DNA of 64,000 nt from Desulfarculia bacterium. Lineage in GTDB: Bacteria > Desulfobacterota > Desulfarculia > G963662305. Positions 10,891-41,174 of the stretch are shown here, piece after piece (the stretch's first letter is position 1; each line of letters opens with the position of its first letter). The stretch covers positions 2,013,620 to 2,077,619 of the forward strand of contig OY759352.1 of the NCBI GenBank assembly GCA_963662305.1. Direction: 5' to 3'. The notes under the pieces are model-generated. The model saw nothing but the letters and a program-made list of their open reading frames with translations, was not told where the DNA came from and did no database searches. The translations under genes were made by a program, and so were the position numbers.

Positions 10891-12087
10891 CTACCGGCTC
10901 TGCAGCTGATCCAGCAGGGCCAATTCGTCTTCAAAGGAGGCCAGGCCCGAATGCCGGCCTGTTTTTAGGCTCAGGACCATGCGCCCCTGGTCCAGAGCCC
11001 GGCGGATGAGGTGCTCCACGGCCCAGGTATCCGGAGCCAGGGGGTAGTCGGCCTGGATCAGGATCTCGGCTTGTTCAATCATCCTCCAGGTCGCCTCGAG
11101 TTTCTCAGGCCCGGCTTCCCTAAAGGGTTCGCAGCCCACAATTCTGGCCCCCACAGCCTGGGCCACCTGAAAATCCAGATCGTGTTTCTGCAGGGGGCCG
11201 GTTAGGATGGGAAAGCCACGCTTGGCCAGGAGCCGGAACAGGCCCGCCCCGGAGCCGCCCCCGGCGGCCACGAACACCTTGGGCCGGCCCAGACGCTCGT
11301 CCGGGTCTTCGCTCTGTTCCAGGACACCCAGCCGGGGGTTGTAGGTGGCCCGTTTCAGCTCAAAGGTCCGGCGGACCGAGTCCTGATCCAGAACCCGCTC
11401 CGGCGGCCCCCAGGCCCTGACCCGGCCGTCTTTGACCAGCGCCACCAGGTCCGAGACCCGGGCCGCCGTGTCCAGGTCGTGGAGGCTGGCGATGATGGTC
11501 AACCCCTCGCGCAGACAGAGCCTTCTCAGAATGCCCATGATCTCCAACCGGTGCTTCAGGTCCAGGTGGATGGTGGGTTCGTCCAGAATGATGATCCGGG
11601 GCGCCTGGGCCAGGGCCCGGGCCAGGAAAATCTTCTGCCGCTCGCCGTCCGAGAGGCGGTCGAAGACCCGGTCGGCCAGCTCCGCCGCGCCCACCAGCTC
11701 CAGGGACCGCTCCACCGCGGCCTTGTCCTCCCGGCTCAGCCGGCCCAGGAGACCGGTGTGGGGATGGCGGCCCAGGCCCACCAGCTGCCAGGCGGTGAGC
11801 AGCCCCAGGCGGGGCCGCTCCGTGAGCACCACGGCCTGGAACCGGGCCAGCTGGGCCTGGCTCAGCCCGGCCAGATCGTGCCCCTCCAGATAGACCGCCC
11901 CCTTGAGGGGCGGCAGGAGCCGGGCCAGGGTCCGCAGCAGGGTGGTCTTGCCCGCTCCGTTGGGGCCCAGCAGAGAGACGAATTGGCCCGGTTCCACGCT
12001 CAGGTCGATCCGGCCTATAACCTCCCTGGTTCCGTATCCCACGGAGAGGTTTTCTATCTTTATCAACGGGATATCCGCGGTGCTCAA
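10891..12087 (-). CDS. ABC transporter ATP-binding protein (Fe3+-siderophore/B12/heme importer type) with ~140-aa C-terminal extension
   Basis: Walker A GPNGAGKTT, signature LSDGERQ, Walker B IIILDEPT, H-loop; the N-terminal part of ORF 10891-12546 is a spurious extension; start assigned to TTG at 12087 (GGAG 9 nt upstream) overlapping the permease stop. Confidence 0.8.
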   Translation of the reverse strand: MSTADIPLIKIENLSVGYGTREVIGRIDLSVEPGQFVSLLGPNGAGKTTLLRTLARLLPPLKGAVYLEGHDLAGLSQAQLARFQAVVLTERPRLGLLTAWQLVGLGRHPHTGLLGRLSREDKAAVERSLELVGAAELADRVFDRLSDGERQKIFLARALAQAPRIIILDEPTIHLDLKHRLEIMGILRRLCLREGLTIIASLHDLDTAARVSDLVALVKDGRVRAWGPPERVLDQDSVRRTFELKRATYNPRLGVLEQSEDPDERLGRPKVFVAAGGGSGAGLFRLLAKRGFPILTGPLQKHDLDFQVAQAVGARIVGCEPFREAGPEKLEATWRMIEQAEILIQADYPLAPDTWAVEHLIRRALDQGRMVLSLKTGRHSGLASFEDELALLDQLQSR

Positions 12088-13100
12088 AACGACTTGCTCC
12101 GTCTGATCAGCAGCCCGATGACGATGGGCGCCCCGAAAAAGGCGGTCACGGCCGAAAGGGGCGTCTCCACCGGGGAGAAGAGCATCCGGGCGATAAGGTC
12201 GCACAGCCCGGTGACGATGCCGCCGATAAGGGCCGTGATGGGGATGAGGAGGCGGTTGTCCGCCCCGGACAGGCTCAGCCGGGCGATGTGGGGCACGGCC
12301 AGGCCGATGAAGGCCACCGGACCGGCCGTGGAGGTGACCAGGGCGGCCAGGCCGCAGGCCAGGAAGACCACGGCCACCCGGAAGAAGCGGACGTTGACCC
12401 CCATGGTGGCGGCGTACTCCTCGCCCATGAGAAAGGCGTTGAGCTGCTTGGCCAGCAGAAAGGCGCCCAGCATCAAAGCCCCGCCCCCGATGACCACGGC
12501 CCCCACCTCGGACCAGCGGTATCCGGCGAAACTGCCCAGGGTCCACAGCTTGAACCCCTTGATCTTCTCCGCGTCGGCAAAGGCGATGAGGATGGCCGTG
12601 ACCGCATTGGCCAGATAGCCGATCATCAACCCGGTGATGAGCAGGGTCACCCCGCCCGAGACCCGGGTGGCGATGAGGGTCACGGCCAGCATGGCCGCCA
12701 CGGCCCCCACAAAGGCGGCTCCGGTGGTCAGAAAAGGCCCCAGGGCGGTGAAGCCCACGGCCGCGGTGGTGAGCATGACCAGCCCCACCATGAGGGTCGC
12801 CCCGGAGGAGATTCCCAGAATAAAGGGCCCCACAATGGGATTGCGGAAAAAAACCTGGAGCAGCAGCCCGGCCACGGCCAGGCAGGCCCCGCCCCAGGTG
12901 GCGGCCACGGCCCGGGGCAGCCGGATCTTCCAGACGATGAAGCCATAAGTATCCTCCGGCCCCTCCATCCCGTTAAACACGGTGGCCATGATCTTGGCCA
13001 GGGGGATATCCAGGGAACCGATGACCAGATTCAGATAGAAACTGGCCACCAGCCCCAGGGAGCAGAACAGAAAGAGGAGTTTTGTTCTTCGGGCGGACAT
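12084..13100 (-). CDS. FecCD-family ABC importer permease (BtuC/FhuB/HmuU-like)
   Basis: 338 aa, multi-TM, typical FecCD sequence pattern (LLAGxxLALAGxxLQ, GxxxFIGLxxPHIARxL). Confidence 0.85.
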   Translation of the reverse strand: MSARRTKLLFLFCSLGLVASFYLNLVIGSLDIPLAKIMATVFNGMEGPEDTYGFIVWKIRLPRAVAATWGGACLAVAGLLLQVFFRNPIVGPFILGISSGATLMVGLVMLTTAAVGFTALGPFLTTGAAFVGAVAAMLAVTLIATRVSGGVTLLITGLMIGYLANAVTAILIAFADAEKIKGFKLWTLGSFAGYRWSEVGAVVIGGGALMLGAFLLAKQLNAFLMGEEYAATMGVNVRFFRVAVVFLACGLAALVTSTAGPVAFIGLAVPHIARLSLSGADNRLLIPITALIGGIVTGLCDLIARMLFSPVETPLSAVTAFFGAPIVIGLLIRRSKSF

Positions 13101-13103
13101 TTC

Positions 13104-14177
13104 TCAACGGTCCTTGAGCTGGAGGAAATAACGGAGTTTATGGTCCGGGAACAGTTCCGGGTGGATGATGGCGGCCAACTCCCTTATCACCCGGTCCATC
13201 TCCCCGGCCGACTGATAGTAGACCGCCTGGGGCACGAACATCCTTCCTTTAGTCATGGGCCTGATCCCGGCCAGCATGGGGTTGACCCGGGCCAGATCGG
13301 CCTTGGAATGGATGCCCGTCTTGTCCGATCTATAGGTGAACATGACATCCGCCTTGCGTCCGCTGGAGAAGAACCTCTCCAGTGTTACCTCCAGTCAGGA
13401 GGAGCCGGCGATGTCGTCGAACAGATAATCGCCGCCCACGGCCTTGATCAGCTGGGCCGCCCAGGAGTGGCCCGGCTCCACCAGGACCCGTTTCTCGTAG
13501 ATGTCGCCCCAGATGGCCTTGGGCCGACGATCAGCTTTCTTGGTTACGGCCCTTACCTCCTCCAGGACCGCCATGGACCGCTCCACGAACTCCAGGGCCC
13601 GCTCCTGTGCCCCGAAAAAGGGGGCCAGGAACCGGGTCAGGTTGATGTAGGTCTCCAAATCGGCCGCGGTCTCGCCGTAGGTGATCACCGTGGGGATGCC
13701 CAGCTCGCTCATCTTGGGGATGATGGACTCGTCCCAGGTCAAAACCAGCTCCGGCTTGAGCCGGATCAGCTTCTCCAGGTCTATGCTGGAGCTCAAACCC
13801 AGACCGGCCACCCGGCCCGAGGCCAACCCCTCCGCCACCTGGGGCAGGGTCCAGTCCTCAGGGTGGCCGGTGACGCCCACAATGGCTCCGGCCGCGCCCA
13901 GGACGTCCAGGAACGAAGCGTCCCGGCCCGAGTAGACCACCGCCCTCTCCACCGGAATGCGGACCACCTCATCCGGGGCCAGGCCCGGAGGAACCTCCCG
14001 GTCCCGGGGAACCAGGGTCAGCATCCGGCCCAGCCCGTCGGTGAGTTCATACAGGCCTTGGTCCAGGGAACGGACCGAGAACTCGCCCAGGACCAGGAAG
14101 TCCTCGCCCCTGGCGGGCCAGGGAAAGGAGGCGACCAGAAATAAGAGGATGAGAAGATGTATTTTAAGCCGGCCCAT
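13104..14177 (-). CDS. Periplasmic substrate-binding protein of iron-siderophore/B12/heme ABC importer; reading frame interrupted by a single in-frame TGA at 13395-13397 (candidate Sec codon or nonsense mutation)
   Basis: ORFs 13395-14177 and 13104-13343 are in the same frame (coordinates congruent mod 3) separated by one TGA; joined product ~357 aa with signal peptide and two-lobe PBP-like sequence. Confidence 0.65.
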
Positions 14178-15003
14178 GGGCTTGCTCCTTTGGTCCGCTC
14201 CGGGCGTTTTTTCTGAGGGTCTGGATCAGGTAGCCGGTCAGCCCCAGCACGAACAGGCCCACCCCGGCGAAGAATCCGCCCACGCCCGGGTCCTTCCTGA
14301 CGATCAGGTTGGCCCAGCCGGGCCGCCCGGCCCGGTTCCTGGTCTGGGGCTGGTAGTTTTTGATGTGCACGCTGAAACCCCGGTAGCGGACCGGTTTGTT
14401 GATGCCCAAATGCCGGACCGTCTCCCGGCCCCGTGGGTCGGTGAAGGCCAGGGTCAGGTCCTGATCAATGGCCCGGTTTTCGAAAAAGGAGAGGCGGCGG
14501 CCCTGGTAGTACTCCACCTCCATCTTTTCCAGGCGGAGCCGGTGGCCGGTTTGGGCCAGATCCACGGTTCGGCCCGGGGAGAGGATGTTGTTGCGCAGAT
14601 TGACCCCCACCACGTAGCTGGCCAGCATGGAGACCAGCAGGACCAGGAAGGCTAGGTGCATCAGGTGGGGCGAGAAGCGGAGCAGGTAGTCCAGCCGGCC
14701 GGTCTCCCCGGAGCGGATGCGGATCAGCCCGGCCACCCGGTTGATGGTGCAGACCGAGGTGTTGAGCACCAGGAGGAGCATGAGCCCCATGAAGACGAAG
14801 AACCACCAGGTCTCGGCCAGATGGAACCGGCCGTAGGTGGTTATCCAGTCCCACAGCATGAGCCGGTCCAGGGGGCCGAAGAGCTGGGGCTCGGCTCTAA
14901 AATGAAAGAACCCGGCGCACAAATCCGCCACCAGGGCCAGGAGGACATAGAGGGTCAGGTCGGCCCGGCCCAAAAAACTCCAGATCGCCTTGGCAGCCCT
15001 CAT
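14164..15003 (-). CDS. Membrane protein, ResB/Ccs1-like (cytochrome c biogenesis-type)
   Basis: Real start at MRAAKAIW (ATG 15003, ATGA overlap with upstream stop); the N-terminal 89 aa of ORF 14164-15270 are spurious; several TM segments; family assignment tentative. Confidence 0.45.
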   Translation of the reverse strand: MRAAKAIWSFLGRADLTLYVLLALVADLCAGFFHFRAEPQLFGPLDRLMLWDWITTYGRFHLAETWWFFVFMGLMLLLVLNTSVCTINRVAGLIRIRSGETGRLDYLLRFSPHLMHLAFLVLLVSMLASYVVGVNLRNNILSPGRTVDLAQTGHRLRLEKMEVEYYQGRRLSFFENRAIDQDLTLAFTDPRGRETVRHLGINKPVRYRGFSVHIKNYQPQTRNRAGRPGWANLIVRKDPGVGGFFAGVGLFVLGLTGYLIQTLRKNARSGPKEQAHGPA

Positions 15004-15767
15004 ATCAGGAACCTGGGCATGAGGAACTGCCCGGTCTCGGGCAGGTAGGCGAAATAGAAAAGCAGGGCCAGCCCGGCCAGGGCGAACCAGGCCTGCCGGC
15101 CCAGGGACCAGCTCTGGAGCAGATAGAGGTGCAGAAAGGCGCCGTAATAGAACCACACGGCCATGACCGAGGTCATGATGTACTCCCGCCAGACCACCGG
15201 GCTGGTCCAGCCCAGATAGGACCAGGTGTCGGCCGCAAACAGGGACAGGGTGAAGGAGATGAAGCCCCACACGGCCAACCGGCCGAAAAGGCGGGGCCGC
15301 AGGGGCCTGACCCCTTTTTTGCGGCGGCGCAGAAACAGGGCCGCCTCCACCCCGGCGGCGCAGAACAGGGCCTTGCCCAGTCCGCTCAAAAGGACCATTA
15401 GATGGGCGAACACGGTCCTGGAGCGGGGAAAGGGGAGGTAGTCGCTCTTGGGGAACAGGGCCGTGTACAGGGCCAGAAAGGCGATCACAGGGAGCAGCCC
15501 TCGGACCAGATCCCGCTTCCCGGACAGGAGCACCCCCAAACCCAGCCCGGCCAGGCAGAGGACCAGCCAGAAGGGCTCCTGGTGGGGGGCCTGCATGGGC
15601 CAGGAGCCGTAAAGCTTGATCCCCACCGAGGCCAGGTTGGCCGAGAACCCCAGGGCCAGGAGCAAACCCGACAAACGTTCAAAGCGTAGCGCGGCCAGGG
15701 CCAGCACATAGAACCCGGCGGCCAGGTAAAAGGCGTTGAGGGTCCACTGGTTCAGGAGCAGGGTCAC
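15000..15767 (-). CDS. Membrane protein, cytochrome c assembly (CcsA/CcmC-like) family
   Basis: 255 aa polytopic protein with Trp-rich segment DTWSYLGWTSPVVW resembling the WWD heme-handling motif; tentative. Confidence 0.45.
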   Translation of the reverse strand: MTLLLNQWTLNAFYLAAGFYVLALAALRFERLSGLLLALGFSANLASVGIKLYGSWPMQAPHQEPFWLVLCLAGLGLGVLLSGKRDLVRGLLPVIAFLALYTALFPKSDYLPFPRSRTVFAHLMVLLSGLGKALFCAAGVEAALFLRRRKKGVRPLRPRLFGRLAVWGFISFTLSLFAADTWSYLGWTSPVVWREYIMTSVMAVWFYYGAFLHLYLLQSWSLGRQAWFALAGLALLFYFAYLPETGQFLMPRFLI

Positions 15768-17251
15768 GCCCGCGTCTCCCCCCGGGGGGCCAGGAGCAGC
15801 TCCCGGTCGATGCGTTCCTGAAAGTTCCGTTGGCGCAGGGGACCGGTGTCCAGATCCAGGGAGAGCAGCCCCTTTTTATCCGCCTGGATCTCGATCCAGG
15901 GCTGGTGGCCCTGGGGCGGCAGGGAGGCCAGGGCCAGGTTGGTAAAGGCCCCGGCCAGGGCGATCTTTTCCACGGCCTTGACCGAGAGGATGGTCTGCTC
16001 CGGTTCCTCCAGACGGCCTCCGGACACGGCCAGCAGATCGCAGCCCCGCTTGGCCAGGGCCGCGGCCAGCTCCGGATGGAGAGCCGCCTCCTGTTCGGCC
16101 AGCCCGATCCGGGCCGTCTCCAGGTCCACCATTGCCGGTTCGGTCATCCGGGCCGGGTGGAAGATTTTGATTCCTCCAGGCCGGGCCAGAACCAGGCAGG
16201 AAAAATCGCCGTCTTCCAGTTGGGTAAAAATCGCCCCTGATATTTCCCGGGCCAGGCGGACCAGGCCCTCGGCGGTCCACCGCGGTTCTTGCAGCCGGGG
16301 CAGGATGACCAGCCCGGCTTTTTCCTTGTCCAGCCTGGCGGAAATTTCGGTCGGCGACATCGCCCCGGCCAGGGCCCGGACCCGGAGCAGGCCGGGCTCG
16401 GGCAGGGGGAAAAAGGCGGTGGGGTTCTGGATCATACCCACATCCGCGCAGAGGTAATGGTACAGCTCCGGGGTCCGCCCGGCCAGGCGGGCCCGCCGGG
16501 GCGCGGGGTCCAGGCGGCCCTGCTTCAGGGGCAGTTCCGCCGTAATCACCAGGGAATCCGGGCCGGAGCCGCTCTGGAGCAGCTCTCCCCGGCTGTTGAA
16601 CAGGGCCGAGCGGGCCGGGGTGCAGTCCATGGTCCGGTCCTGCCCGGTGCGGTTGGCCGCGGCCAGGTTGAGTCCGTTCTCCAAGGCTCTGGCCCGCCAC
16701 AGTTTCAGGGGGTCCAGCCCGGCGGGCGGCCAGTTGGCCGGAACCAGGAGCAGATCCACCCCCTTGAGGGCCATGGACCTGACCAGCAGGCCGTAGTAAC
16801 TCTCCGAGCAGATCAGGACCCCCAGCCGGCCCCAGGGGGAATCCAGGGTGTCCTCCTGGCGGGCCGGGCCCGGGCAGGCCCACTTGGATTCGGCCGAGAC
16901 CTTGCGCCGTCTAACCCTTTGTCCCTCCGGAGAAAGGATAAAGGCCGAGTTGTAATAGAGCCCAGTGCGGGGGTCCTCCTCGGCCAGGCCCAGGCAGATG
17001 TAGACCTCTCTTTGGGCCGCGATCTCGCTTAGGGCGGTGAGGGTGGGGCCCCGGGCGGTCTCCACATGGGGGGCGATCTCGGCCCGGGACTCGAAGGAGT
17101 ACCCGGAGACGGACATCTCCGTGGACAGGATTATCTTGGCCCCGTTTTGAGCGGCTTGCGCCACCAGTCGGATCATCTCCACCCGGTTGGCCTCGTTTCG
17201 ACCGTGCTCCAGCCGGGGGTGGATCAGGGCCAGTTTCAAACTTTTTTCCAT
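15764..17251 (-). CDS. Carbon-nitrogen hydrolase (nitrilase superfamily) protein, possibly two tandem domains
   Basis: Start at MEKSLKLALIHP (ATG 17251); conserved E...K...C triad context (ILSTEMS..., ICSESYY, LLLVPANWP). Confidence 0.7.
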   Translation of the reverse strand: MEKSLKLALIHPRLEHGRNEANRVEMIRLVAQAAQNGAKIILSTEMSVSGYSFESRAEIAPHVETARGPTLTALSEIAAQREVYICLGLAEEDPRTGLYYNSAFILSPEGQRVRRRKVSAESKWACPGPARQEDTLDSPWGRLGVLICSESYYGLLVRSMALKGVDLLLVPANWPPAGLDPLKLWRARALENGLNLAAANRTGQDRTMDCTPARSALFNSRGELLQSGSGPDSLVITAELPLKQGRLDPAPRRARLAGRTPELYHYLCADVGMIQNPTAFFPLPEPGLLRVRALAGAMSPTEISARLDKEKAGLVILPRLQEPRWTAEGLVRLAREISGAIFTQLEDGDFSCLVLARPGGIKIFHPARMTEPAMVDLETARIGLAEQEAALHPELAAALAKRGCDLLAVSGGRLEEPEQTILSVKAVEKIALAGAFTNLALASLPPQGHQPWIEIQADKKGLLSLDLDTGPLRQRNFQERIDRELLLAPRGETRA

Positions 17252-17316
17252 TTTCAAAGCTCGTCCGTTTTCACTATCCAATATGGTTTGATGTCATACG
17301 GTAAATCTCTTCAATC

Positions 17317-18135
17317 CTAACGGGCCAGTTCCAGGAGCAGGTCGGGCCGGTCCGACGAGACCACCTGGGCCCCCAGGTCCACGGCCCGCCTGGCCCGGCT
17401 CAGAAGGTCGTGCTCGCCCCACAGAAAGACCATCACCCTGGCTCCGGCCTCCCTGGCCTCGGCAAAGCCCCACCGGGGGAAAAACCACTCCGAGGCGAAC
17501 AGGGCCTGGGCTTCCAGGGCCTTGGCCGCAAAGGAGGGCAACCCCTCGATCTTCCACCAGGTCAGCAGGTCCACGCAGATCTTCAGCTCCGGATCCACCT
17601 TTCTGATGGCTCTGATCGTCTCCACCTTCTGGGGGGCGTCGATGGAAAAAATAACCCGGTCGCGGATATCCGAGGCCGCCACCTCTTGGGCGACCTTGGC
17701 AGGGTCCACAGCCTTGAGGTCCAGGGCCAGCTCAAAGCCGGGCCTGGTCGCCGCCAGCTCCAGGACCTGGGCCAGGGTGGGCGGGGCCTCCTTGGTGACC
17801 CGGCCCTGCTTGTCCTTGAGCCGCAGCTTTTTCACCTGGGCCAGGTCCATCTCCTTGACTTGGCCGGTCCCGTCGGTGGTCCGGTCCACCGTGGGGTCGT
17901 GCATCAGGACCAAGGCCTTGTCCCTGGTGGTGCGGAGATCGATCTCGGTTCCCAGCAGGCCCAGGTCCAGGGCCGCCTTTACCGAGGCCAGGGAGTTCTC
18001 CGGGTGGTGGAGACAGAAGCCCCGGTGGGCGAACAGCCCCGCCTCCCCGGCCCGGGCCTGACCGGCCAGTCCCAGCAGAATCAGCAGGGCCAGGACGATT
18101 GCCGGGCCGCCTTTTCTTATTTTTGACAACATCAT
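17317..18135 (-). CDS. Glycerophosphodiester phosphodiesterase (GDPD) family protein, secreted
   Basis: Start at MMLSKIRK (18135) giving signal peptide; GDPD signature FAHRG...HPENSL...EIDL...VLMHD. Confidence 0.7.
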   Translation of the reverse strand: MMLSKIRKGGPAIVLALLILLGLAGQARAGEAGLFAHRGFCLHHPENSLASVKAALDLGLLGTEIDLRTTRDKALVLMHDPTVDRTTDGTGQVKEMDLAQVKKLRLKDKQGRVTKEAPPTLAQVLELAATRPGFELALDLKAVDPAKVAQEVAASDIRDRVIFSIDAPQKVETIRAIRKVDPELKICVDLLTWWKIEGLPSFAAKALEAQALFASEWFFPRWGFAEAREAGARVMVFLWGEHDLLSRARRAVDLGAQVVSSDRPDLLLELAR

Positions 18136-18142
18136 CTCCCGC

Positions 18143-21886: not shown

Positions 21887-21957
21887 GGCTGTTCTCCCCA
21901 GCGGGCCGAGGGCTTATAATGGCCCCCATGGACTCCGCACCTGAGAGGATTGAACAA

Positions 21958-23136: not shown

Positions 23137-23166
23137 GCAATATGGCGGCTTACCTTTCATCAGTCC

Positions 23167-24951: not shown

Positions 24952-24962
24952 ATATTCCCCCC

Positions 24963-28685: not shown

Positions 28686-28687
28686 AA

Positions 28688-32805: not shown

Positions 32806-32807
32806 GC

Positions 32808-33542: not shown

Positions 33543-34408
33543 GGCCGCACCCTCCGCCCGGTGAGCCGGATGAATACATCCTCCAGGTTGGCCGTCCGGA
33601 TGAGTACATCGCCGGACATATCGGCCGCATGGGCCGCGGCCCGGTCACGGTCCTCGAAAAAGGTCATGCCGTCCTCCTCCCCGGCGCACTCCACCACCAC
33701 CCGGCCCACCCGCTCCAGCAGGGCGGCCGGGGTGTCCAGGGCGATGATCCGGCCCTGGTCGATGATGCCCACCCGGTGGCAGAGCTTCTCGGCCTCCTCG
33801 ATGTAGTGGGTGGTCAGGAAGATGGTCGCCCCGGAGCGGAGGCTGGCCTGGATCAGTTCCCACAGCCGCCGCCTGGTCTGGGGGTCCAACCCCACGGTGG
33901 GTTCGTCCAGGAAAAGGATCCTGGGTTGGTGAAGCAGGGCCCGGGCGATCATCAGCCGCCGCTTGAGTCCGCCGGAGAGGACCTTGGCCTGGGCCTTGCG
34001 GCGGTCGGACAGGCCGGTGAACTCCAGCAGCTCGTTGATCCGGGACTCACGCCGGGGCGGGTCCATGCGGTGGAGCAGGCCGTGGAGTTTCAGATTCTCG
34101 TATACCGACAGTTCGGCGTCCACGTTGGTGTGCTGGGGACAGACCCCGATCAACCCCTTGGCCGCCACCGCCTCCCGGACCACGTCGTGGCCGAAGACCC
34201 GGGCGGTTCCCTTGTCCGGCTTGGTCAGGGTGGTCAGGATCCTGACCGTGGTGGTCTTGCCCGCCCCGTTGGGGCCCAGGAACCCGAATATCTCCCCCGG
34301 CCGGACGGTCAGGCTGAGGCCGTCCACGGCCTTGACCTGGCCGTAGTGCTTGACCAGATTCTCTATCTCGATGGCCGGTCCGTCCATGTTTCCTCTCGAT
34401 TCAGTCAT
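33539..34408 (-). CDS. ABC transporter ATP-binding protein (ABC-2/DrrA-like)
   Basis: Walker A GPNGAGKTT, signature LSGGLKRR, Walker B ILFLDEPTVGLD. Confidence 0.8.
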   Translation of the reverse strand: MTESRGNMDGPAIEIENLVKHYGQVKAVDGLSLTVRPGEIFGFLGPNGAGKTTTVRILTTLTKPDKGTARVFGHDVVREAVAAKGLIGVCPQHTNVDAELSVYENLKLHGLLHRMDPPRRESRINELLEFTGLSDRRKAQAKVLSGGLKRRLMIARALLHQPRILFLDEPTVGLDPQTRRRLWELIQASLRSGATIFLTTHYIEEAEKLCHRVGIIDQGRIIALDTPAALLERVGRVVVECAGEEDGMTFFEDRDRAAAHAADMSGDVLIRTANLEDVFIRLTGRRVRP

Positions 34409-35216
34409 GATTCCGGGTATCTCCCCCGGAGGGGATCTCCTCCGGGGGCAGGGGGGCCTCCACCCGGATCAGGGGCCGGCCCCGGGAGTCCAAATCCACC
34501 CGGGCCCTGACCCCGTAGACCCGGGCCAGGTTCTCCGGAGTCAGGACCAGGGCCGGCTCGCCCAGGGCCGCCACCCGGCCCTGGTGGAGCAGGACCAAAT
34601 CGTCGGCGTACCGGGCGGCCAGGTTCAGGTCGTGGAGGCTCACCGCCAGGCAGAGCTGCCGGGACTCCTTCAAGCCGGTCAACAGGTCCAGAACCTCCAG
34701 CTGGTGGCGCAGATCCAGGTTGCTGGTGGGCTCGTCCAGGAGCAGAATCCGGGTCTCCTGGGCCAGGGCCCGGGCCAGAAGGGCTTTTTGTTTTTCTCCC
34801 CCGCTGAGCTCGTCGAAATAGCGTTCGGCCAGCCCGGTCAAACCAAGCGCGGCCAGGGCCTCCTGCACAGCCCGGCGGTCCTCCGGCCCCACCCGGAAAC
34901 GGAGATGGGGCCGCCGGCCCAACAGGACCACCTCGGCCACCGTGGCGGCCACGGACTGGGCCCCGTTCTGGGGCACGTAGCCGATCTCCCGGGCCAGGGC
35001 CCGGGCTGATAGGCGGGCCAGGTCTCGGCCCTCCAAGAACAGGCTGCCCTGGCCGGGTTTGAGAATCCGGTCCAGACAGCACAGCAGGGTGGACTTGCCC
35101 GACCCGTTGGGGCCTATCAGCCCGGTGAGTCGCCCCGGACGGAGATGCAGGGAGACCCGGTCCAGGACCCGGCGACTGTTGTAGGAGAACTCAATGTTTT
35201 CGGCCCGCAGGGTCAC
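34401..35216 (-). CDS. ABC transporter ATP-binding protein (Fe3+-siderophore/B12/heme importer type)
   Basis: GTG start at 35216 overlapping permease stop (GTGA); Walker A GPNGSGKST, LSGGEKQ, ILLLDEPT; the upstream part of ORF 34401-36110 is a spurious extension. Confidence 0.8.
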   Translation of the reverse strand: MTLRAENIEFSYNSRRVLDRVSLHLRPGRLTGLIGPNGSGKSTLLCCLDRILKPGQGSLFLEGRDLARLSARALAREIGYVPQNGAQSVAATVAEVVLLGRRPHLRFRVGPEDRRAVQEALAALGLTGLAERYFDELSGGEKQKALLARALAQETRILLLDEPTSNLDLRHQLEVLDLLTGLKESRQLCLAVSLHDLNLAARYADDLVLLHQGRVAALGEPALVLTPENLARVYGVRARVDLDSRGRPLIRVEAPLPPEEIPSGGDTRNHD

Positions 35217-36250
35217 GACAGCCAGTCCTTCCTGCGCCGGGCCAGGAGATAGAGGAAAAAGGGTCCGCCCAGAAGGGCGGTCATGATTCCCACCGGCATC
35301 TCCACCGGCCAGACCAGGCTCCGGGCCGCCGTGTCCGCAGCCAGGAGCAGCCCGGCCCCCACCAGGGCCGAGGCCGGGACCAGGAAACGGTGGTCCGAGC
35401 CGATGAGGCTGCGGGTGATGTGGGGGGCCATGAGGCCGATGAAGTTGATGGCCCCGGTAAAGGAGACCACCGAGGCGGTTAAAAGAGTCGACAGGAGCAG
35501 GGTCGCAAGCCTCACCCGGCCCACCCTGACCCCCAGGCTGTGGGCCGTCTCCTCGCCCGCGCCCAGGGCGTTGAGGTCCCAGGCCAGAAACATGAGGGCG
35601 AGGAGGCCCAGGAGGACCACCGGAGCCAGGAACCAGACCGTCTCCATCTGGGCGTCCCACAGGGAGCCCATGAGCCAGAAGACAACCTCCCGGAGGTCCT
35701 CCTCTTTGGCCACATACTGGAGCAGGGAGACCAGTCCGGAAAAGATGTAGCCCACGGCGATGCCGCTGAGGATGATGGTCTCCCGGCTGGACTTGGCCAG
35801 CCGGGCCAGCACGTAGGCCAGAATCATGGCCGCCGAGGCGGTGACAAAGGCGTTGGCCACCACCAGGTAGCGTCCCAGGCCCAGGATATCCACCCCCAGG
35901 ACCAGGGCCAGGGCCGCGCCGAAAGCCGCTCCGGAGCTGATGCCCAGCACGGCCGGGCTGACCAGGGGATTCATCAGCACGGCCTGGGTGCCGGTGCCGG
36001 CCAGGGCCAGGCCCGCGCCGGCCACCAGGGCCAGCAGCACCCGGGGCAGCCGCAGCTCGAAGACGATCACCGCCGCCTGGGCCGAGGGCTCCCGGGCCGG
36101 GCTGAGCCACTCCCAGAAGACCCGGGCCACGGTCTTGAGTCCGTAACCGGACAGCCCCACCGAGGCTCCCAGGAGGATAAGAGCCAGCAACGCCGCCCCT
36201 AGGACGGCCAGGACAAACACTTTTCGGGAATGGCTGATGCTTTTGGTCAT
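35213..36250 (-). CDS. FecCD-family ABC importer permease
   Basis: 345 aa multi-TM FecCD-type sequence. Confidence 0.85.
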   Translation of the reverse strand: MTKSISHSRKVFVLAVLGAALLALILLGASVGLSGYGLKTVARVFWEWLSPAREPSAQAAVIVFELRLPRVLLALVAGAGLALAGTGTQAVLMNPLVSPAVLGISSGAAFGAALALVLGVDILGLGRYLVVANAFVTASAAMILAYVLARLAKSSRETIILSGIAVGYIFSGLVSLLQYVAKEEDLREVVFWLMGSLWDAQMETVWFLAPVVLLGLLALMFLAWDLNALGAGEETAHSLGVRVGRVRLATLLLSTLLTASVVSFTGAINFIGLMAPHITRSLIGSDHRFLVPASALVGAGLLLAADTAARSLVWPVEMPVGIMTALLGGPFFLYLLARRRKDWLS

Positions 36251-37287
36251 GGAATAAAGTAGGTCCCGTCCATCTCCAGGCCGAAGAACCGGCCCAGCAT
36301 CTCCCGGTGGATGGCCCGGGGGTCTACCTCGGCCATTTTCCCGGGATGAAAAACTTTGGCCAGGTGCAGCGCTCCGATGAGGTTACGCAGCCCGTATCCG
36401 ATGCGACTGTTGTAGAGGTAGACCCGTCCCCGGGCCGTGCACTTCAGGCCGCGGATGCCCGGCCGGTTCATGGCCTCCTCCCTCAGGGCGGCCATGTACT
36501 CCCGGTCCGGCACCTTGAAACCCACCCCGGTGAGGTCCGCGGACAGGGCCAGATGGTCCGGGGCCTGGTCCACGATCCACTCGGCCGAAACCCGCTGATA
36601 GGGCAGGGGCAGGGCATCGGAGATGTTCCTGCCTCCGGCCAGGGGGATAATCTGGCGGCCCCTCTTGTCGTTGGAGGTGAAATACAGCTGGCGGCCCGAT
36701 CCCAGAAAGACCCGGGGCCGCTCCTCCGGGGTCAGGTCGCCCAGGCGCCGGTCCAGCAGCCGGACCTGACGGTCCAGAAAGCCGTTCAGCTCCTGACCCC
36801 GCTCCTCCTGCTGAAACAGCTCCGCCAAGGCCTTGACCATGCCCTTGATCCGGCCCTGGAAGTAGCCGTTCATGAACACCACCGGGATGCCCAGGGATTC
36901 CATTTTTTCGGCGGTGTTGAAAAAATGGGTGTCGGCGATGATCAGATCCGGCTTCAGCTTCCAGATCAGCTCCAGGTTGGGATGGACCACCGAGCCGATG
37001 GAGGGCCGGGCCTCCAGGGCCGGGGGCCAGTTGGTCCAGTCGGAGCGGGCGATGATCCGCTCTCCGGCGCCCAGGGCCCAGACCGTCTCCGTGGCCGCGC
37101 CGCCCAGGACCATGGCCCGCCGGATCGGCCGCTTCACCTCCCGCTCCCGGCCCATCATGTCCGCCACCTTGAAGAACCCGGGGCGTACCTGGAGGACCTG
37201 GGGATCCGGGTCAAAGCCGCACCAGGCCGGAGCGGTCCAAAGCGTCGCAGCCACAAGGATCATGGTTAATGACAGACGGTTCGCCAA
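36247..37287 (-). CDS. Periplasmic substrate-binding protein (iron-siderophore/B12/heme ABC importer)
   Basis: 346 aa, signal peptide, two-lobe PBP pattern; operon with permease and ATPase. Confidence 0.8.
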   Translation of the reverse strand: MANRLSLTMILVAATLWTAPAWCGFDPDPQVLQVRPGFFKVADMMGREREVKRPIRRAMVLGGAATETVWALGAGERIIARSDWTNWPPALEARPSIGSVVHPNLELIWKLKPDLIIADTHFFNTAEKMESLGIPVVFMNGYFQGRIKGMVKALAELFQQEERGQELNGFLDRQVRLLDRRLGDLTPEERPRVFLGSGRQLYFTSNDKRGRQIIPLAGGRNISDALPLPYQRVSAEWIVDQAPDHLALSADLTGVGFKVPDREYMAALREEAMNRPGIRGLKCTARGRVYLYNSRIGYGLRNLIGALHLAKVFHPGKMAEVDPRAIHREMLGRFFGLEMDGTYFIP

Positions 37288-37351
37288 ACAGGCAACTCCC
37301 TCAAACAGGCCCCCGGTCGGGAAATCCGGCCGGGGGAATCGGGTTGTTTAT

Positions 37352-38911
37352 CTATGAGGCCGGGATGCCCAGGACCTCGCATTTGCGCCAGAAGGTGCAG
37401 TTGTTGGTAAAGGAGCTGAGCAGGCCGGCCCGGGTGCCCTCGCCGCCCAGATAGGCCAGGTAGGTGGCCAGCTGGTCGGCCGAGGCGTCCACCCCGTAAA
37501 AGACCTGGAAGAGGATGTTGATGTACTGCTCGTCGGTGGTGTTGCGGGCCTGGAAGGTGCTGCCGTTGAGCAGCATGGAGGCCATGCTGGTGGCGGTGAG
37601 GGAACCGCCCTGGAGAGCCGCGGCCAGTTGGCTCAGTTCATCGTCGGCGCCTTCCCGGTCCAGAACCTGGATGTACCAGGTGGCCAGCCAGGCCTTCAGG
37701 GCCCCCGCATCGGCGCAGAAGGAGATGGTCAACGGGATCAGGTTGGTGTCGACCGTCTCATCGACCGCCCCGGTGGCGGAATTGTAGATGAGCGCCTGGG
37801 AGTCGGTCCGGTTGGTGATCCAGAGCAGGCCGTTCTTGTCCACGCCCACTCCGCCGGAGGTGGAGACGGTGCAGTTCTTGTTGTCCATGGCGCTCACCGT
37901 GGCCCCAACCTCGCCGGTGCCGGGGTTGAAGGAATGGACGGTGGTGTCGTCGGTTCCGTGGTAGCCCACGAAGTAGCCCAGGGTGGGGGAGATGATCTGG
38001 AGGCTGCCGATGGCCCCGTAGGGATGGTTGTTGGCGTCGCCGTCCTCCACCACCGTGGCCACCTCATAGGTGTTTACGTCGATGCTGACGATGCCGCCGG
38101 TGTACTCGTACCCGGTCGTCTCCCCGTAGGGATAGCGGCCCGCAGCGCTGATAAAGAGCTTGCCCAGCTCAGGCACGTAGACCACGGCATTGGGGCTCTT
38201 CACCGGCAGGGTGATGCCCTTGGCTCCGTCGGCCGCGCCCTTGCCGGTGTCGATCTCGGTGTCCGTGGCGGTGTCGAACACGGCCACGTAGGAGTTGTTG
38301 GTGGGCCACCAGGAGCTGTCGCGGTTGAGCCGCTGGATCAGGACGAACAGCTTGCCGTTGACCACGATGCCCTCGTGGGCCTCGGGAATGCCGTCCGAAT
38401 CCTGGTAGGAGCTGATGTCCAGGGTTCCGGTCTTGAACTCGGCCTCTGTGGCGGCGTTCAGATTGACCACCCAGATGCCGCTGCTGCCGTACATGGGCAT
38501 ATAGGCCTTGGAGGCGTTGAGAAATATCAGGTCGTGGGGGTTGTTGGAGACCTGGTCCGGCGAGTCCAGGGTGGAAAACTGCCACAAAGGCGTTTTCGGA
38601 TCAGAGATGTGGAACTTGGCGATGCTGTCGGACTTGTAGCGTTCGATGCGGTAGAAATACTCGCCGTAGGAACGCATGATCAAATCCGAGATGGAGGTGG
38701 GGAGAATGTCAACCTGGCTGCCCCGGGGTCCGCCCACCGGGTCCACGTCGATCAGGACCGTGGCCCCGGAGGTGTAGTCGGCCGCGCCGGTGCACAGGGT
38801 GGCCGTGTCGGCCAGGGCCGAACCGGCCAGCCCAAAAACAAGGGCCGCGATCAGAAAAGCATGGATCAGGGATAATCTAAATCCGCAACTAAAAATCGAA
38901 CGGGGTTTCAT
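37352..38911 (-). CDS. Secreted protein, unknown function (beta-rich; C-terminal DUF4214-like segment)
   Basis: 519 aa with N-terminal signal peptide; Thr/Gly/Asp-rich beta-like repeats; lies between the TonB receptor and the binding protein. Confidence 0.5.
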   Translation of the reverse strand: MKPRSIFSCGFRLSLIHAFLIAALVFGLAGSALADTATLCTGAADYTSGATVLIDVDPVGGPRGSQVDILPTSISDLIMRSYGEYFYRIERYKSDSIAKFHISDPKTPLWQFSTLDSPDQVSNNPHDLIFLNASKAYMPMYGSSGIWVVNLNAATEAEFKTGTLDISSYQDSDGIPEAHEGIVVNGKLFVLIQRLNRDSSWWPTNNSYVAVFDTATDTEIDTGKGAADGAKGITLPVKSPNAVVYVPELGKLFISAAGRYPYGETTGYEYTGGIVSIDVNTYEVATVVEDGDANNHPYGAIGSLQIISPTLGYFVGYHGTDDTTVHSFNPGTGEVGATVSAMDNKNCTVSTSGGVGVDKNGLLWITNRTDSQALIYNSATGAVDETVDTNLIPLTISFCADAGALKAWLATWYIQVLDREGADDELSQLAAALQGGSLTATSMASMLLNGSTFQARNTTDEQYINILFQVFYGVDASADQLATYLAYLGGEGTRAGLLSSFTNNCTFWRKCEVLGIPAS

Positions 38912-38981
38912 TGCCTTCCTCCCTTAGTGGTTTTTATTCCGCCTTATTGTTGTCGATGGTTTTTTCCATTTGTTTTCAATT

Positions 38982-41090
38982 TCAGTAGTCGTAGCTTAAG
39001 CTCAGCCAGAAGGACCGGCCGGCCGAGGGGTAGCCGTTGAAGTCCTCGTACTGGTCGTCGCCCACGTTGCGGACCTCGAAATCAACGGTGGCGCCCCAGA
39101 GCTTGTAGGACAGGCCCACGTTGAACACGTTCTTGTCCTCGGCCGGGAGCAGGTTGGCCGTGTCGTAGTACATCCCCTTCTGGGCCTGGTACTCACCGTA
39201 GACCTTCAGGCCCTCCCACAGAAACTCCAGCCGGCAGAAGTATGACTGGTTGAACCGGCCGGGCAGTTCCTTGCCCTCAAAGGCTTTCACATCGCCGTGG
39301 TTGATGGCCTCCTGGAAGGTGGCGTTGCCGCTGAACCGGAAATACTCCAGGAAATCCACATTGAGCTGAAGCTCCACGCCCTGGATGTCGGCGTGGGCGA
39401 TGTTTTTGGAAGTGCCCACCCCGTAGGAGTCGTAGACCCGGATGATGATGTCGTCCACGTCGCTACGGAAATAGGCCGCCCGGGCGAAAAGACGGTCCAG
39501 GCAAAATACCTTGGGGGTCAGGCTGACCTCCAGCCCCACATCGAAGTTGATTCCGGACTCGGCCTCCAGATCCTTGTTGGCGGCCAGGAATCCGCGGTCG
39601 CCGAAGAGCTCGTAGAAGTTGGGCTCGCGGACGTACTGGGAAAAATTGGATTTAAGGGCCAGCCAGTCCAGGGCCTGAAATTTCAGCCCGATCTGGGGGT
39701 TGACGTACTGCTCCTGCCGCTTCCGGCCCTCCAAGACCGAACCCCAGGAGCTGACCGCGCTCTTGAGGTGGTCCTTAAGCCGGGTGTAGCGCAGGGCCGG
39801 GGTGATGGTCAGGCGCTCGTCCAGCAGGACCAGGCTGTCCTGAAGGGCCGCCGAAATGGAGGTCCGGTCGGAGGAGGGGGGGGTGTCCACCCCCAGCTTG
39901 TCCACGGGCAGATAATCCTCGTAGCGGATGTCGGCGCTGACCGCCGCAGTGTGGTAGCGGGTGGGCCATTCCACGAACAGGTTGGCCCCGTAGCGGTCGG
40001 TGTTGTAGATGTTGAGCTGCCTGCCCAGGCCGATGCCGTCGTGGCGGTCGTCGTACTCCTCCTCCTGCCACAGGTAATCCAGGCGCAGGGCCGCGTTGAG
40101 GTGGAGGCTGGTCAGGTTGTCCTTGCTCAGGCGCAGGGTGGAGATGTTGCGCTTGGTGGTCAGGGAGGCGTCGGTCTTGGTGGAGTTGTTCCAGGAGGAC
40201 AGGCCCTGATCCTTGTAAAAGAACTGGTTCATCCCGTCCAGGCGAAAGCCGCCTCCCAGGTCGTATCCGGCCTTGACCAGAACGTTGGCCTTGTCGTATT
40301 GGGCGTTGTTGCGGTCCTCGTAGCGGTCGTCGTCCTTGTTGAACTGGGTCCCGTTGTCGTTGAATATCTCAAAATCGTTGTCGCTGGCGGAATAGTCGGC
40401 GGAGATCAGATAATCGAACCGGCCCAGGTTGTGGTTAAGGTAGGCCGAGGCCTGGCGGGTGTTGAAGGAGCCGTAAGCTGCCGAGGCCGAGGCGTTGAGG
40501 CCCTCTTGGACCTTGAGGGTTTTGATGTTGACCACTCCGCCGATGGAGGCTTTGCTGAAATTGGCCGGGGTGGTCCCTCGGTATATCTCCAGGGATTCCA
40601 CGTCGCTCAAGGAGATGTTGCCCAGGTTGACCCCGCCCCCGGAACCGTCGTTGAGCAGGATGCCGTCCAGATAGATCATGACCTGGTCGCTGGAGGAACC
40701 CCGCAGAGACACGGTGGAGAACCCGCCCAGGCCGCCCTGCTGGCGGACCTGGACCCCGGCCTCCTTCTCGATCACGTCGGCCACGTTCTCCATCCGGCCC
40801 TGGAACTGGGACCGGTCGATGACCGTGAAGAAACCGGGCGAAACGGTCAGATCCACCTGTCCGGTCTCGATCTTTTCGGAGGTGACCTCCACCTCCTCCA
40901 GGACGGTCTCTTTTCCCTCGGACTCCTGTGAGACGTCTTCCTTGGAGCGGTCTTCCTCCGCTGTGATTTCAAGGGAATGGCCGCTTTCTCCGGCCCGGAC
41001 AGGACCGCCGGCACCCCCCCAGATCAGGAGGAATGAAAGGATAATGAACGGAATGCGCCGCCGAGATTTATCCAGAGTGGCCGTGATCAC
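38982..41090 (-). CDS. TonB-dependent outer-membrane receptor, BtuB-like (downstream of cobalamin riboswitch)
   Basis: GTG start at 41090 with AGGGGGAG upstream gives signal peptide VITATLDKSRRRIPFIILSFLLIWGGAGGPVRA; plug and barrel regions, C-terminal Y; the ORF-track ATG at 41153 lies inside the terminator palindrome. Confidence 0.85.
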   Translation of the reverse strand: MITATLDKSRRRIPFIILSFLLIWGGAGGPVRAGESGHSLEITAEEDRSKEDVSQESEGKETVLEEVEVTSEKIETGQVDLTVSPGFFTVIDRSQFQGRMENVADVIEKEAGVQVRQQGGLGGFSTVSLRGSSSDQVMIYLDGILLNDGSGGGVNLGNISLSDVESLEIYRGTTPANFSKASIGGVVNIKTLKVQEGLNASASAAYGSFNTRQASAYLNHNLGRFDYLISADYSASDNDFEIFNDNGTQFNKDDDRYEDRNNAQYDKANVLVKAGYDLGGGFRLDGMNQFFYKDQGLSSWNNSTKTDASLTTKRNISTLRLSKDNLTSLHLNAALRLDYLWQEEEYDDRHDGIGLGRQLNIYNTDRYGANLFVEWPTRYHTAAVSADIRYEDYLPVDKLGVDTPPSSDRTSISAALQDSLVLLDERLTITPALRYTRLKDHLKSAVSSWGSVLEGRKRQEQYVNPQIGLKFQALDWLALKSNFSQYVREPNFYELFGDRGFLAANKDLEAESGINFDVGLEVSLTPKVFCLDRLFARAAYFRSDVDDIIIRVYDSYGVGTSKNIAHADIQGVELQLNVDFLEYFRFSGNATFQEAINHGDVKAFEGKELPGRFNQSYFCRLEFLWEGLKVYGEYQAQKGMYYDTANLLPAEDKNVFNVGLSYKLWGATVDFEVRNVGDDQYEDFNGYPSAGRSFWLSLSYDY

Positions 41091-41134: not shown

Positions 41135-41174
41135 TAAAAAAAAGTCCCCCCATCCCTTAAGGGATGGGGGGACT
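41135..41174 (-). terminator. Intrinsic-terminator-like hairpin (perfect 32-nt palindrome followed by U8 on the minus strand); probable riboswitch expression platform
   Basis: 41143-41174 AGTCCCCCCATCCCTT/AAGGGATGGGGGGACT is a perfect palindrome; on the minus strand it is followed immediately by eight U; sits between the riboswitch aptamer and the receptor start codon. Confidence 0.55.

Follow-up and report, generated by a model that had tools for sequence, protein, structure and literature searches.

Why strict anaerobes, which insert cobalt early, keep CobN-type ATP-driven chelatases beside B12 transporters has been an open question ever since B12 was first studied by comparative genomics. 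The operon type concerned is known from a comparative genomics paper (Rodionov 2003, as cited in PMC6460266). One of the closest described examples is operon-2 of Dehalobacter restrictus PER-K23, which is syntenic with Acetobacterium woodii and has been read as augmented salvage (Rupakula et al. 2015, PMC4285132). Corrinoid starvation induces this operon 346-fold at the RNA level and 46-fold at the protein level, and its host is an auxotroph with a truncated cbiH, in which free cobalt is not usable for de novo synthesis (PMC4285132). Chlorobium and Chlorobaculum carry a CobN-BchHID cluster beside a TonB-dependent cobalamin receptor (PMC8620254, which cites the C. tepidum genome paper). The CobN-ChlID sets of methanogens and haloarchaea have no assigned function (PMC8305020, PMC3087415, PMC12350162), while a salvage role has been speculated for Chlorobium and haloarchaea (PMC8620254, PMC8305020). 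The operon type is therefore already published as a putative salvage operon (PMC4285132, PMC8620254, PMC8305020). All characterised enzymes driven by ChlID or CobST insert metal (PMC7689651). HmuS is a heme de-chelatase with a heme site in its head domain (Met-79, His-254), driven by NADH and membranes (PMC12583661), and since it runs the same fold in reverse, as reported in 2025, the direction of the metal step has become a real question.

Here we analyse an unusually complete version of this system in a 64,000-nucleotide stretch of a Desulfarculia bacterium genome, referred to below as the window (GenBank assembly GCA_963662305.1, contig OY759352.1, positions 2,013,620 to 2,077,619 of the forward strand). 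All genes of the cluster lie within window positions 10891-41090. An initial annotation had placed the parts of a class I chelatase, with ChlI, ChlD and two subunits of the H type, amid genes for uptake and salvage. Pfam and NCBIfam searches bear this out and recovered every component it named where it had been placed; its gene list needs amending, in that cbiZ lies inverted on the plus strand and a radical S-adenosylmethionine (SAM)/SPASM gene at 28688-29746 was missing. We read the cluster as a B12-starvation regulon for the scavenging, trimming and re-metalation of corrinoids, and give this model as a whole a probability of about 0.55. The elements on which the argument turns are the following.

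18143-21886, minus strand: CobN-2, a large subunit of the "4-Cys" clade described below, under every NCBIfam cut-off
24963-28685, minus strand: CobN-1, a canonical cobaltochelatase-type large subunit (TIGR02257, 967.7 bits against a cut-off of 822)
29743-30762, minus strand: ChlI-like AAA+ motor subunit with Mg_chelatase and AAA_lid_2 domains
30763-32805, minus strand: ChlD-like subunit with an AAA+ module, a linker rich in proline and acidic residues, and a vWA domain with the DxSxS motif of a metal ion-dependent adhesion site (MIDAS)
41143-41174, minus strand: intrinsic terminator forming the riboswitch expression platform (14-bp stem, 4-nt loop, U7)
41255-41440, minus strand: cobalamin riboswitch aptamer (RF00174, 109.7 bits against a gathering threshold of 31.5, full model 1-189)

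The two CobN-type subunits share 31% identity and differ in their relation to known enzymes, which we judged from phmmer and NCBIfam scores for HmuS, BchH and ChlH and from a neighbour-joining tree, computed without bootstrap, of 115 sequences that were all of CobN type. With the two solved CobN structures CobN-1 reaches 752 and 711 bits, compared with 511 bits for ChlH and 348 for HmuS, and it carries the active-site motifs HIAKHGSLE and SDDY as found in the CobN structures 7c6o and 9uk9. In the tree it falls into a clade of CobN from anaerobes that is sister to aerobic-type CobN. CobN-2 reaches 621.5 bits with TIGR02257, below the cut-off of 822, and lies at about the same distance from two CobNs (451 and 423 bits) and from ChlH (427); the score for HmuS is 336. 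It lacks the active-site motifs of CobN, reading HFGCEGALE and CGCY, and it branches in a separate deep clade together with methanogen CobN genes. Both proteins stay below the cut-off of 829 of the BchH/ChlH model TIGR02025, CobN-1 with 765 bits and CobN-2 with 625. The position of ChlH H1174 is occupied by Asp in CobN-1 and by Cys in CobN-2.

Members of the clade of CobN-2 share a seven-residue insertion in a lid loop, QPKRGCYGxxCxGxVC(R/K)ILHD, and a further Cys in a neighbouring HNxPC loop. The four cysteines (C357, C493, C498 and C503 in CobN-2) occur in 85/85 clade members and 0/32 other CobNs, counts in which C357 is the independent residue since the other three were part of the search pattern that defined the clade. 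At the position of ChlH His-1174, which is HmuS His-1209 and the Asp of CobN, 67 of the 85 members also have Cys, within a motif that reads CGCY in CobN-2 and CCCY in archaea. The catalytic Glu (ChlH E660) is retained in CobN-2. In place of the "invariant" His of HFGxHG, CobN-2 has Glu, and the clade varies between H, E and S at this position. The insertion falls in the beta5/alpha7 "Loop I", which in ChlH and HmuS lies over the pocket for the tetrapyrrole (PMC12583661). Going by how the strands of domain III are ordered in HmuS (PMC12583661), the four cysteines are probably close together. Judging from these residues, CobN-2 may have a cysteine-lined active site, which could hold an Fe-S cluster or serve as a thiolate metal relay.

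The ChlD-like protein scores 798.5 bits with the "putative cobaltochelatase" model TIGR02442, above its cut-off of 779.45, and has Walker A and B motifs and the MIDAS sequence DASGS. Its ChlI-like partner reaches 429 bits with TIGR02030, below the cut-off of 467. With Walker A/B and MIDAS motifs intact, ChlI and ChlD would make up one complete AAA+ motor for the two catalytic subunits. No hydrophobic segment above threshold was found in CobN-1 (1240 amino acids) or CobN-2 (1247 amino acids), and both are predicted to be cytoplasmic.

The order of aptamer and terminator points to transcriptional attenuation by B12. Because the terminator hairpin overlaps the mechanically assigned ATG at 41153, the start of the first receptor gene is most likely the GTG at 41090, which is exactly the end coordinate given in the initial annotation. 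Behind the riboswitch the minus-strand genes run from TonB receptor 1 through the BtuG-like gene, BtuF/BtuC/ATPase genes, ABC-2 exporter, ChlD, ChlI, radical SAM enzyme, CobN-1 and TonB receptor 2 to the point where cbiZ lies on the plus strand, and continue with CobN-2, GDPD, C-N hydrolase, CcsA-like and ResB-like genes, binding protein 2, permease 2 and ATPase 2. The cobN-2 and cbiZ genes are divergent with a gap of about 70 bp (21887-21957). A sigma-70-like site at 21852-21880 (plus strand) suits cbiZ, while no sigma-70-like promoter for cobN-2 was found on the minus strand and no terminator between receptor 2 and cobN-2. The riboswitch-controlled transcript may therefore continue through cbiZ, in antisense, into cobN-2. 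A second riboswitch or other RNA element ahead of cobN-2 or cbiZ was sought and rejected, with no match even at E <= 1. Further cob/cbi biosynthetic genes, including cobG, cobF, cobS, cobT and cobW, were not found in the 64-kb window.

To see how far this arrangement extends, relatives of CobN-2 were collected at one genome per species (175 sequences), and 82 loci were examined with 10-kb flanks. They come from Desulfobacterota, Chlorobi, Clostridia and methanogens and share a recurrent core of CobN, ChlI/ChlD, ABC-2 exporter, CbiZ, radical SAM enzyme and BtuFCD-like importer. ChlI/ChlD is linked to CobN-2 in 41/82 loci, FecCD importers in 30, the radical SAM enzyme in 29, the ABC-2 permease in 21-29, CbiZ in 22-26, a CobN-1-clade gene in about 25 and the C-N hydrolase in 13-14; a GDPD gene adjoins CobN-2 in six and the CcsA/ResB pair is linked in five. 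BtuR and CbiR-family AP_endonuc_2 proteins also recur as neighbours, each in 9 loci, as does CbiK in 8, where some of the proteins have signal peptides. Gene order follows the pattern ChlD-ChlI-(ABC-2)-CbiZ-(receptor)-CobN2-(rSAM-amidase) in Desulfobacterota, rSAM-CobN1-receptor-ChlD-ChlI-CobN2 in Chlorobi and CobN2-ABC-2-binding protein in methanogens, where rSAM denotes the radical SAM gene, and nearly the entire core is present in Clostridium faecium (L081). The order in the window is matched in a Desulfarculaceae metagenome-assembled genome (MAG; L022) and in L002 and L083, the best synteny being with the Desulfarculaceae MAGs L022 and L004. Since the co-localisation recurs across several phyla, the cluster is not a chance neighbourhood.

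A cobalamin riboswitch was found in 10/10 bacterial loci tested and in none of 2/2 archaeal loci tested. In L012 it stands immediately upstream of CobN-2 and in L007 immediately upstream of CobN-1/CobN-2; in Desulfobulbus propionicus it precedes a receptor-BtuR-rSAM-amidase-CobN-2 operon. Downstream (3') of the D. propionicus CobN-2 orthologue, at 13774-18789 of locus L001, we also noticed genes for a 335-amino-acid protein, a polyferredoxin-like protein, HGD-D (2-hydroxyacyl-CoA dehydratase-type), a BcrAD/BadFG-type ATP-dependent activase and DsbD_2. Together they would make up a set for low-potential electron delivery beside the cysteine-rich chelatase.

Uptake of corrinoids would be the task of two receptors, a secreted partner protein and two importers.

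10891-12087, minus strand: ABC ATPase 2 with an additional C-terminal domain, archaeal BtuD-like architecture, TTG start
12084-13100, minus strand: FecCD-type permease 2 (FecCD, 250 bits)
13104-14177, minus strand: periplasmic binding protein 2, a selenoprotein (Peripla_BP_2; UGA at 13395-13397 as selenocysteine 261)
23167-24951, minus strand: TonB-dependent receptor 2, plug and barrel domains, best NCBIfam match TonB-B12 below cut-off
34401-35216, minus strand: ABC ATPase 1, BtuD-like (ABC_tran), GTG start
35213-36250, minus strand: FecCD-type permease 1, BtuC-like (FecCD, 302 bits; best NCBIfam match BtuC)
36247-37287, minus strand: periplasmic binding protein 1, BtuF-like (Peripla_BP_2; best NCBIfam match BtuF, below cut-off)
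37352-38911, minus strand: secreted BtuG-like seven-bladed beta-propeller of 519 amino acids with signal peptide and C-terminal DUF4214
38982-41090, minus strand: TonB-dependent receptor 1, BtuB-like by context, plug and beta-barrel domains

Receptor 1 scores equally on the NCBIfam models for TonB-B12 and TonB-hemin, below cut-off in both cases. The gene that follows it, third in the order riboswitch, receptor, BtuG-like gene, encodes a propeller with no match in Pfam or NCBIfam. Its AlphaFold2 (AF2) model has a predicted local distance difference test score (pLDDT) of 89, and 13/13 top Foldseek matches in the PDB are BtuG of B. thetaiotaomicron (template modelling (TM) score 0.72-0.81, E ~1e-14) at a sequence identity of about 15%. 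On the strength of this model the secreted protein is predicted to have a BtuG-like fold; it may bind corrinoids. It has no lipobox; the signal peptide ends in ...GSALA/DT and the family consensus contains no conserved Cys. The family is widespread in Desulfobacterota metagenomes with varying C-terminal domains (DUF4214, PKD). Paralogues of this protein (61%) and of the amidase described below (63%) are encoded on the same contig as the window (P0124, P0249), and another version of the entire cluster is present on L083, a related contig from a metagenome. The source genome probably holds two such clusters.

ATPase 2 matches the "corrinoid ABC transporter ATPase" model NF007082 with 247 bits over residues 1-348, and its C-terminal half has no Pfam match. 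The reading frame of binding protein 2 contains an in-frame UGA at 13395-13397, beyond which conserved sequence continues for 96 codons. The orthologues in L022, L004 and L023 have Cys at this column, while L002, L012 and L083 have the same UGA. Because the UGA aligns with Cys and the conserved frame continues, we regard the protein as a selenoprotein; a truncated gene or pseudogene was considered and ruled out on the same grounds. A 7-bp hairpin with a GGUUCU loop 13 nt 3' of the UGA is a possible selenocysteine insertion sequence, with a folding z-score of -0.31 that is not significant. No sel genes are present in the window.

Enzymes that could trim corrinoids, two membrane proteins, the radical SAM enzyme and an exporter complete the cluster.

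14164-15003, minus strand: ResB-like membrane protein (PF05140, 47.5 bits)
15000-15767, minus strand: CcsA-like membrane protein of a heme-handling protein family (PF01578, 37.5 bits against a cut-off of 29.9)
15764-17251, minus strand: C-N hydrolase (amidase) of 495 amino acids (PF00795)
17317-18135, minus strand: periplasmic GDPD-family phosphodiesterase (PF03009) with signal peptide
21958-23136, plus strand: CbiZ, adenosylcobinamide amidohydrolase (PF01955, 202 bits), inverted relative to the cluster
28688-29746, minus strand: radical SAM/SPASM enzyme (Radical_SAM domain) between chlI and cobN-1
32808-33542, minus strand: ABC-2 exporter permease (ABC2_membrane), DrrB/NodJ-like
33539-34408, minus strand: ABC-2 exporter ATPase, DrrA/NodI-like (TIGR01188, 306 bits)

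CbiZ has a conserved C-terminal extension of about 150 amino acids (residues ~250-392) that has no Pfam match, and the orthologues encoded in related loci are equally long (median 412 amino acids from stop to stop). The C-N hydrolase has a triad of E45, K117 and C148 that is invariant in 36 sequences. With this triad and an alpha-beta-beta-alpha fold it belongs to the nitrilase-superfamily amidases. Its AF2 model (pLDDT 94.6) has the P. horikoshii amidase and Nit2 as nearest structures, with TM scores up to 0.86, and its N-domain resembles glutaramide/omega-amidases, which cleave terminal carboxamides like those of corrin side chains. This enzyme had been annotated as a tandem C-N hydrolase. 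The modelled C-terminal half repeats the secondary-structure order of the N-terminal half; at the sequence level the N-terminal half alone matches the family. The C-terminal half has no Pfam match and lacks the catalytic Cys, and hhalign of the two halves gives E = 0.017 over the Cys-strand region. The protein is best modelled as a predicted active N-domain followed by a degenerate second nitrilase-like domain. Orthologues of the CcsA-like protein share a Trp-rich WSYLGWxxPVxW motif and two conserved His. In the radical SAM enzyme we find a CNLSCTYC motif and a C-terminal Cys cluster; the nearest NCBIfam models are thioether/peptide maturases and the anaerobic sulfatase-maturating enzyme, all far below cut-off. 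It is possible that this enzyme modifies a protein. A system for ribosomally synthesized and post-translationally modified peptides, made up of the radical SAM/SPASM enzyme and the ABC-2 exporter, was also considered and ruled out, since there is no intergenic room for a precursor peptide.

The evidence for a link to corrinoids is strong: it includes the riboswitch with its terminator and the presence of the riboswitch in all bacterial relatives tested, together with CbiZ, the best matches of the importers to BtuC and BtuF, and the BtuG-like fold. These results reinforce the connection to corrinoids that the initial annotation had drawn from the riboswitch. In the model that we favour, scarcity of adenosylcobalamin would leave the riboswitch terminator unformed and the minus-strand operon would be transcribed. 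The BtuB-like receptor with its BtuG-like propeller partner would capture corrinoids at the outer membrane, and these would cross the periplasm and enter via the two BtuFCD-like importers. The selenocysteine or Cys of binding protein 2 could possibly ligate the open cobalt face of incomplete corrinoids. By analogy with the CbiR-family genes of sister loci, the periplasmic GDPD enzyme may cut the nucleotide-loop phosphodiester, the cytoplasmic CbiZ would take off the aminopropanol linker, and the omega-amidase-like C-N hydrolase, perhaps with the radical SAM enzyme, could strip or alter side chains. Such trimming would return foreign, incomplete or metal-free corrinoids to the level of (hydrogeno/cob)yrinic acid diamide, the sole stage at which class I cobaltochelatases are known to act (PMC7689651). 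One ChlI-ChlD motor would then drive both CobN-1, with its canonical site, and CobN-2, with its cysteine-lined site and lid, and the ABC-2 exporter may dispose of by-products. The most likely net chemistry would be insertion of cobalt into salvaged corrin rings. We favour insertion because this is what the characterised ChlID- and CobST-driven enzymes do, because the site of CobN-1 is canonical, and because D. restrictus keeps and induces its operon though unable to use freed cobalt (PMC4285132). As the initial annotation held, sequence does not decide the direction of the reaction.

Several points weigh against this model. The substrates of all enzymes in the cluster are ones that we infer. 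Corrinoids that contain cobalt need no chelatase, so that the model requires metal-free corrinoids in the habitat. Metal-free corrinoids are known for some purple bacteria. The model does not account convincingly for the presence of two unlike catalytic subunits or for a conserved ABC-2 exporter, nor for why CobN-2 has Cys in place of carboxylate or His ligands. Within the window, no separate riboswitch precedes the cobN-2 operon. Finally, in six Methanoregula-type loci (L060, L066, L067, L068, L070 and L076) the 4-Cys CobN/ABC-2/FecCD genes lie beside NikR and not beside a B12 element. This matches the report that "CobN1" of Methanothermobacter marburgensis and a NikR homologue appear only under nickel limitation (PMC12350162); this CobN1 is a candidate member of the 4-Cys clade.

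Some of these points would be accommodated if the metal step ran the other way. In such a reverse chelatase, GDPD, CbiZ and the amidase would strip corrinoids to cobyrinic acid diamide and a ChlID-driven CobN-2 would pull the cobalt onto its thiolate-lined lid and site; the metal would be re-used via CbiK or CobN-1 and the macrocycle expelled by the ABC-2 exporter. HmuS provides a precedent for a de-chelatase with the CobN/ChlH fold (PMC12583661), and the Cys at the Asp/His position in most of the clade, together with the four invariant lid cysteines, would be soft ligands suited to Co or Ni. Every conserved part would have a role, including the trimming enzymes and the ABC-2 exporter, which is linked to the clade from archaea to bacteria. 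The adjacency of CbiK to CobN-2 in eight loci, NikR beside archaeal members and induction of the candidate methanogen member only under Ni limitation (PMC12350162) fit as well. However, HmuS is periplasmic and works without a ChlID-type motor (PMC12583661), and D. restrictus with its broken de novo pathway would have no use for freed cobalt (PMC4285132). We therefore consider cobalt recycling unlikely. It also counts against it that we know of no precedent, enzymatic or chemical, for taking cobalt out of an intact corrin. A broader proposal, which we find less probable still, is that the 4-Cys clade as a whole is an ATP-driven extractor with a cysteine relay as acceptor. In bacteria it would take cobalt from stripped corrinoids and in methanogens nickel from Ni-tetrapyrroles, after which the metal would be re-used and the macrocycle exported. 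If this were true, 4-Cys CobN together with GDPD/CbiR, CbiZ and omega-amidase would form a catabolic pathway for vitamin B12 in which the metal is recycled, the first of its kind.

Insertion could also serve de novo synthesis and not salvage. Here the cluster would encode a high-affinity back-up cobaltochelatase that replaces or supplements class II CbiK/CbiX under the scarcity of cobalt or B12 typical of sulfidic habitats, with the Cys site as a built-in metallochaperone like CobW and the transport and salvage genes merely co-regulated. Control by B12 in the bacterial loci and a neighbouring NikR gene in those of methanogens would suit a response to metal limitation (PMC12350162). In Ca. Chlorobium antarcticum the chelatase cluster, cbi genes and cobalt transporter are all in variable low-coverage regions, and Cpv-DSM265 lacks all three alike (PMC8620254). 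Aerobic CobNST needs CobW at low cobalt (PMC7689651), and the window contains no CobW-like gene. Yet the linkage to CbiZ, importers and receptors spans phyla and exceeds that to any cbi gene except cbiK, and the operon type is present in an auxotroph (PMC4285132). In addition, CbiG and CbiH act on cobalt-containing intermediates and the anaerobic pathway needs cobalt early (PMC8305020), which would leave a late CobN-type chelatase without a natural substrate. On balance a back-up enzyme appears decidedly doubtful. Acquisition of heme or another metalloporphyrin, the analogy with Hmu/BtuS systems raised in the initial annotation, could draw on the TonB receptors, which score equally on heme-receptor and BtuB models and below all cut-offs, and on the CcsA/ResB-like proteins from heme-handling families. 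It is contradicted by the cobalamin riboswitch, CbiZ and the BtuG-like fold, and no HmuY-like gene was found in the cluster. HmuS and BtuS of Bacteroidota exceed 1400 amino acids, are periplasmic and membrane-anchored at both ends, and have His-538 and His-1209 (PMC12583661, PMC6460266). At about 1240 amino acids, cytoplasmic by prediction and without transmembrane anchors or the His motif, neither CobN is HmuS/BtuS-like. The LSLDHxxEFMGG region of HmuS reads GSDDYNAYFGG in CobN-1 and GCGCYASFLGG in CobN-2, and HmuS is the weakest full-length match of both among PDB entries. An HmuS-type assignment is thus ruled out by topology, length, motif and scores, and the heme explanation as a whole is very improbable. 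Ordinary aerobic-type B12 biosynthesis at the CobNST step, which the initial annotation expected if both paralogs grouped with bona fide cobaltochelatases in a standard pathway, is more remote again. Half of this expectation holds: CobN-1 passes the cut-off of TIGR02257 and is placed beside aerobic CobN in the tree, while CobN-2 falls outside every curated family. The partners of CobN-1 are ChlI/ChlD and not CobS/CobT, cobG, cobF and cobW are missing from the 64-kb window, and hosts of the cluster are strict anaerobes, some with a documented anaerobic pathway (PMC8620254, PMC3087415).

The surroundings of the cluster differ in composition. The cluster itself (10891-41153) has 66% G+C, whereas the left flank is a 37% G+C island with a tyrosine integrase and the right flank consists of chromosomal genes with 58% G+C (two-component systems, Hdr-like proteins). 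The left part of the window (1-10242) looks like a mobile or defence island. It contains the integrase at 9049-10242 (plus strand), an nSTAND1-HEAT NTPase (4052-6901), a radical-SAM-like gene (6891-8120), a gene for a TehB-like methyltransferase (3418-4071) and an AP_endonuc_2 TIM-barrel gene (2058-2987). Given the difference from the right flank, the corrinoid cluster may also have been acquired horizontally. ARAGORN reported a 97-nt tRNA-Arg(GCG) at 32505-32601 (minus strand), which lies inside the chlD coding region and is almost certainly a false positive.

With two subunits that have different sites, a partner set of ChlID, ABC-2 exporter, radical SAM enzyme, amidase and CbiZ, and opposite regulatory contexts, a B12 riboswitch in bacteria and NikR in methanogens, this system provides experimental handles on the function of anaerobic CobN. 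The long-standing question becomes directly testable, and current views are not yet overturned. If metal-free or foreign corrinoids are salvaged, models of B12 cross-feeding in anoxic, sulfidic habitats would change; if metal is extracted, the biochemistry would be new. For B12 ecology it matters in its own right that a BtuG-like fold is predicted in a host that is not one of the Bacteroidota, and that selenocysteine is indicated in a binding protein of the BtuF type.

Compared with known systems, the window shares with D. restrictus operon-2, going by the published description, the riboswitch, BtuFCD-like importer, CbiZ, CobN and ChlI/ChlD-like genes. D. restrictus is Gram-positive and thus has no TonB receptors or BtuG-like protein, and its operon as described lacks GDPD, C-N hydrolase and CcsA/ResB-like genes and a selenocysteine-containing binding protein. 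Chlorobi loci resemble the window in having both CobN clades, ChlD-ChlI, radical SAM enzyme, TonB receptor and riboswitch. They differ in carrying a CbiR-family AP_endonuc_2 gene in place of GDPD, and within 10 kb they have no CcsA/ResB module and mostly no CbiZ or ABC-2 exporter. CobN-2 shares its clade with CobNs of Methanoregula, Methanospirillum, Methanomassiliicoccales and related archaeal MAGs. These are likewise linked to ChlID, FecCD importers and ABC-2 exporters, but differ by NikR, the CCCY motif and the absence of a riboswitch.

Like aerobic CobNST, the chelatase set includes a TIGR02257 member, CobN-1, with HxGKHG...E and SDDY motifs, and would be ATP-driven with AAA+ and vWA partners; unlike CobNST it has a ChlI/ChlD-type motor in place of CobS/CobT, no CobW, no aerobic pathway context and a second, divergent subunit. 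HmuS and BtuS have the same superfamily fold and also adjoin TonB-dependent receptors, whereas both CobNs of the window are soluble by prediction, are encoded with ChlID, and have Asp (CobN-1) or Cys (CobN-2) at the position of HmuS His-1209. BtuG is a surface propeller that captures B12 and caps BtuB, and was reported as exclusive to Bacteroidetes (PMC6143338; PDB 8bmx, 8okv, 8bai). The BtuG-like protein of the window has the same predicted propeller fold and is encoded right after a riboswitch-controlled TonB receptor, but it has no Bacteroidetes export signal, carries an added DUF4214 helical domain and belongs to a host outside Bacteroidota. Within the literature searched, and as far as we know, the features of this locus that are new are an explicit 4-Cys/CxC signature that sets CobN-2 and the CobNs of archaea apart from the canonical enzyme, the occurrence of a BtuG-like fold beyond Bacteroidota, the binding protein with selenocysteine or Cys, and the GDPD, amidase and CcsA/ResB module.

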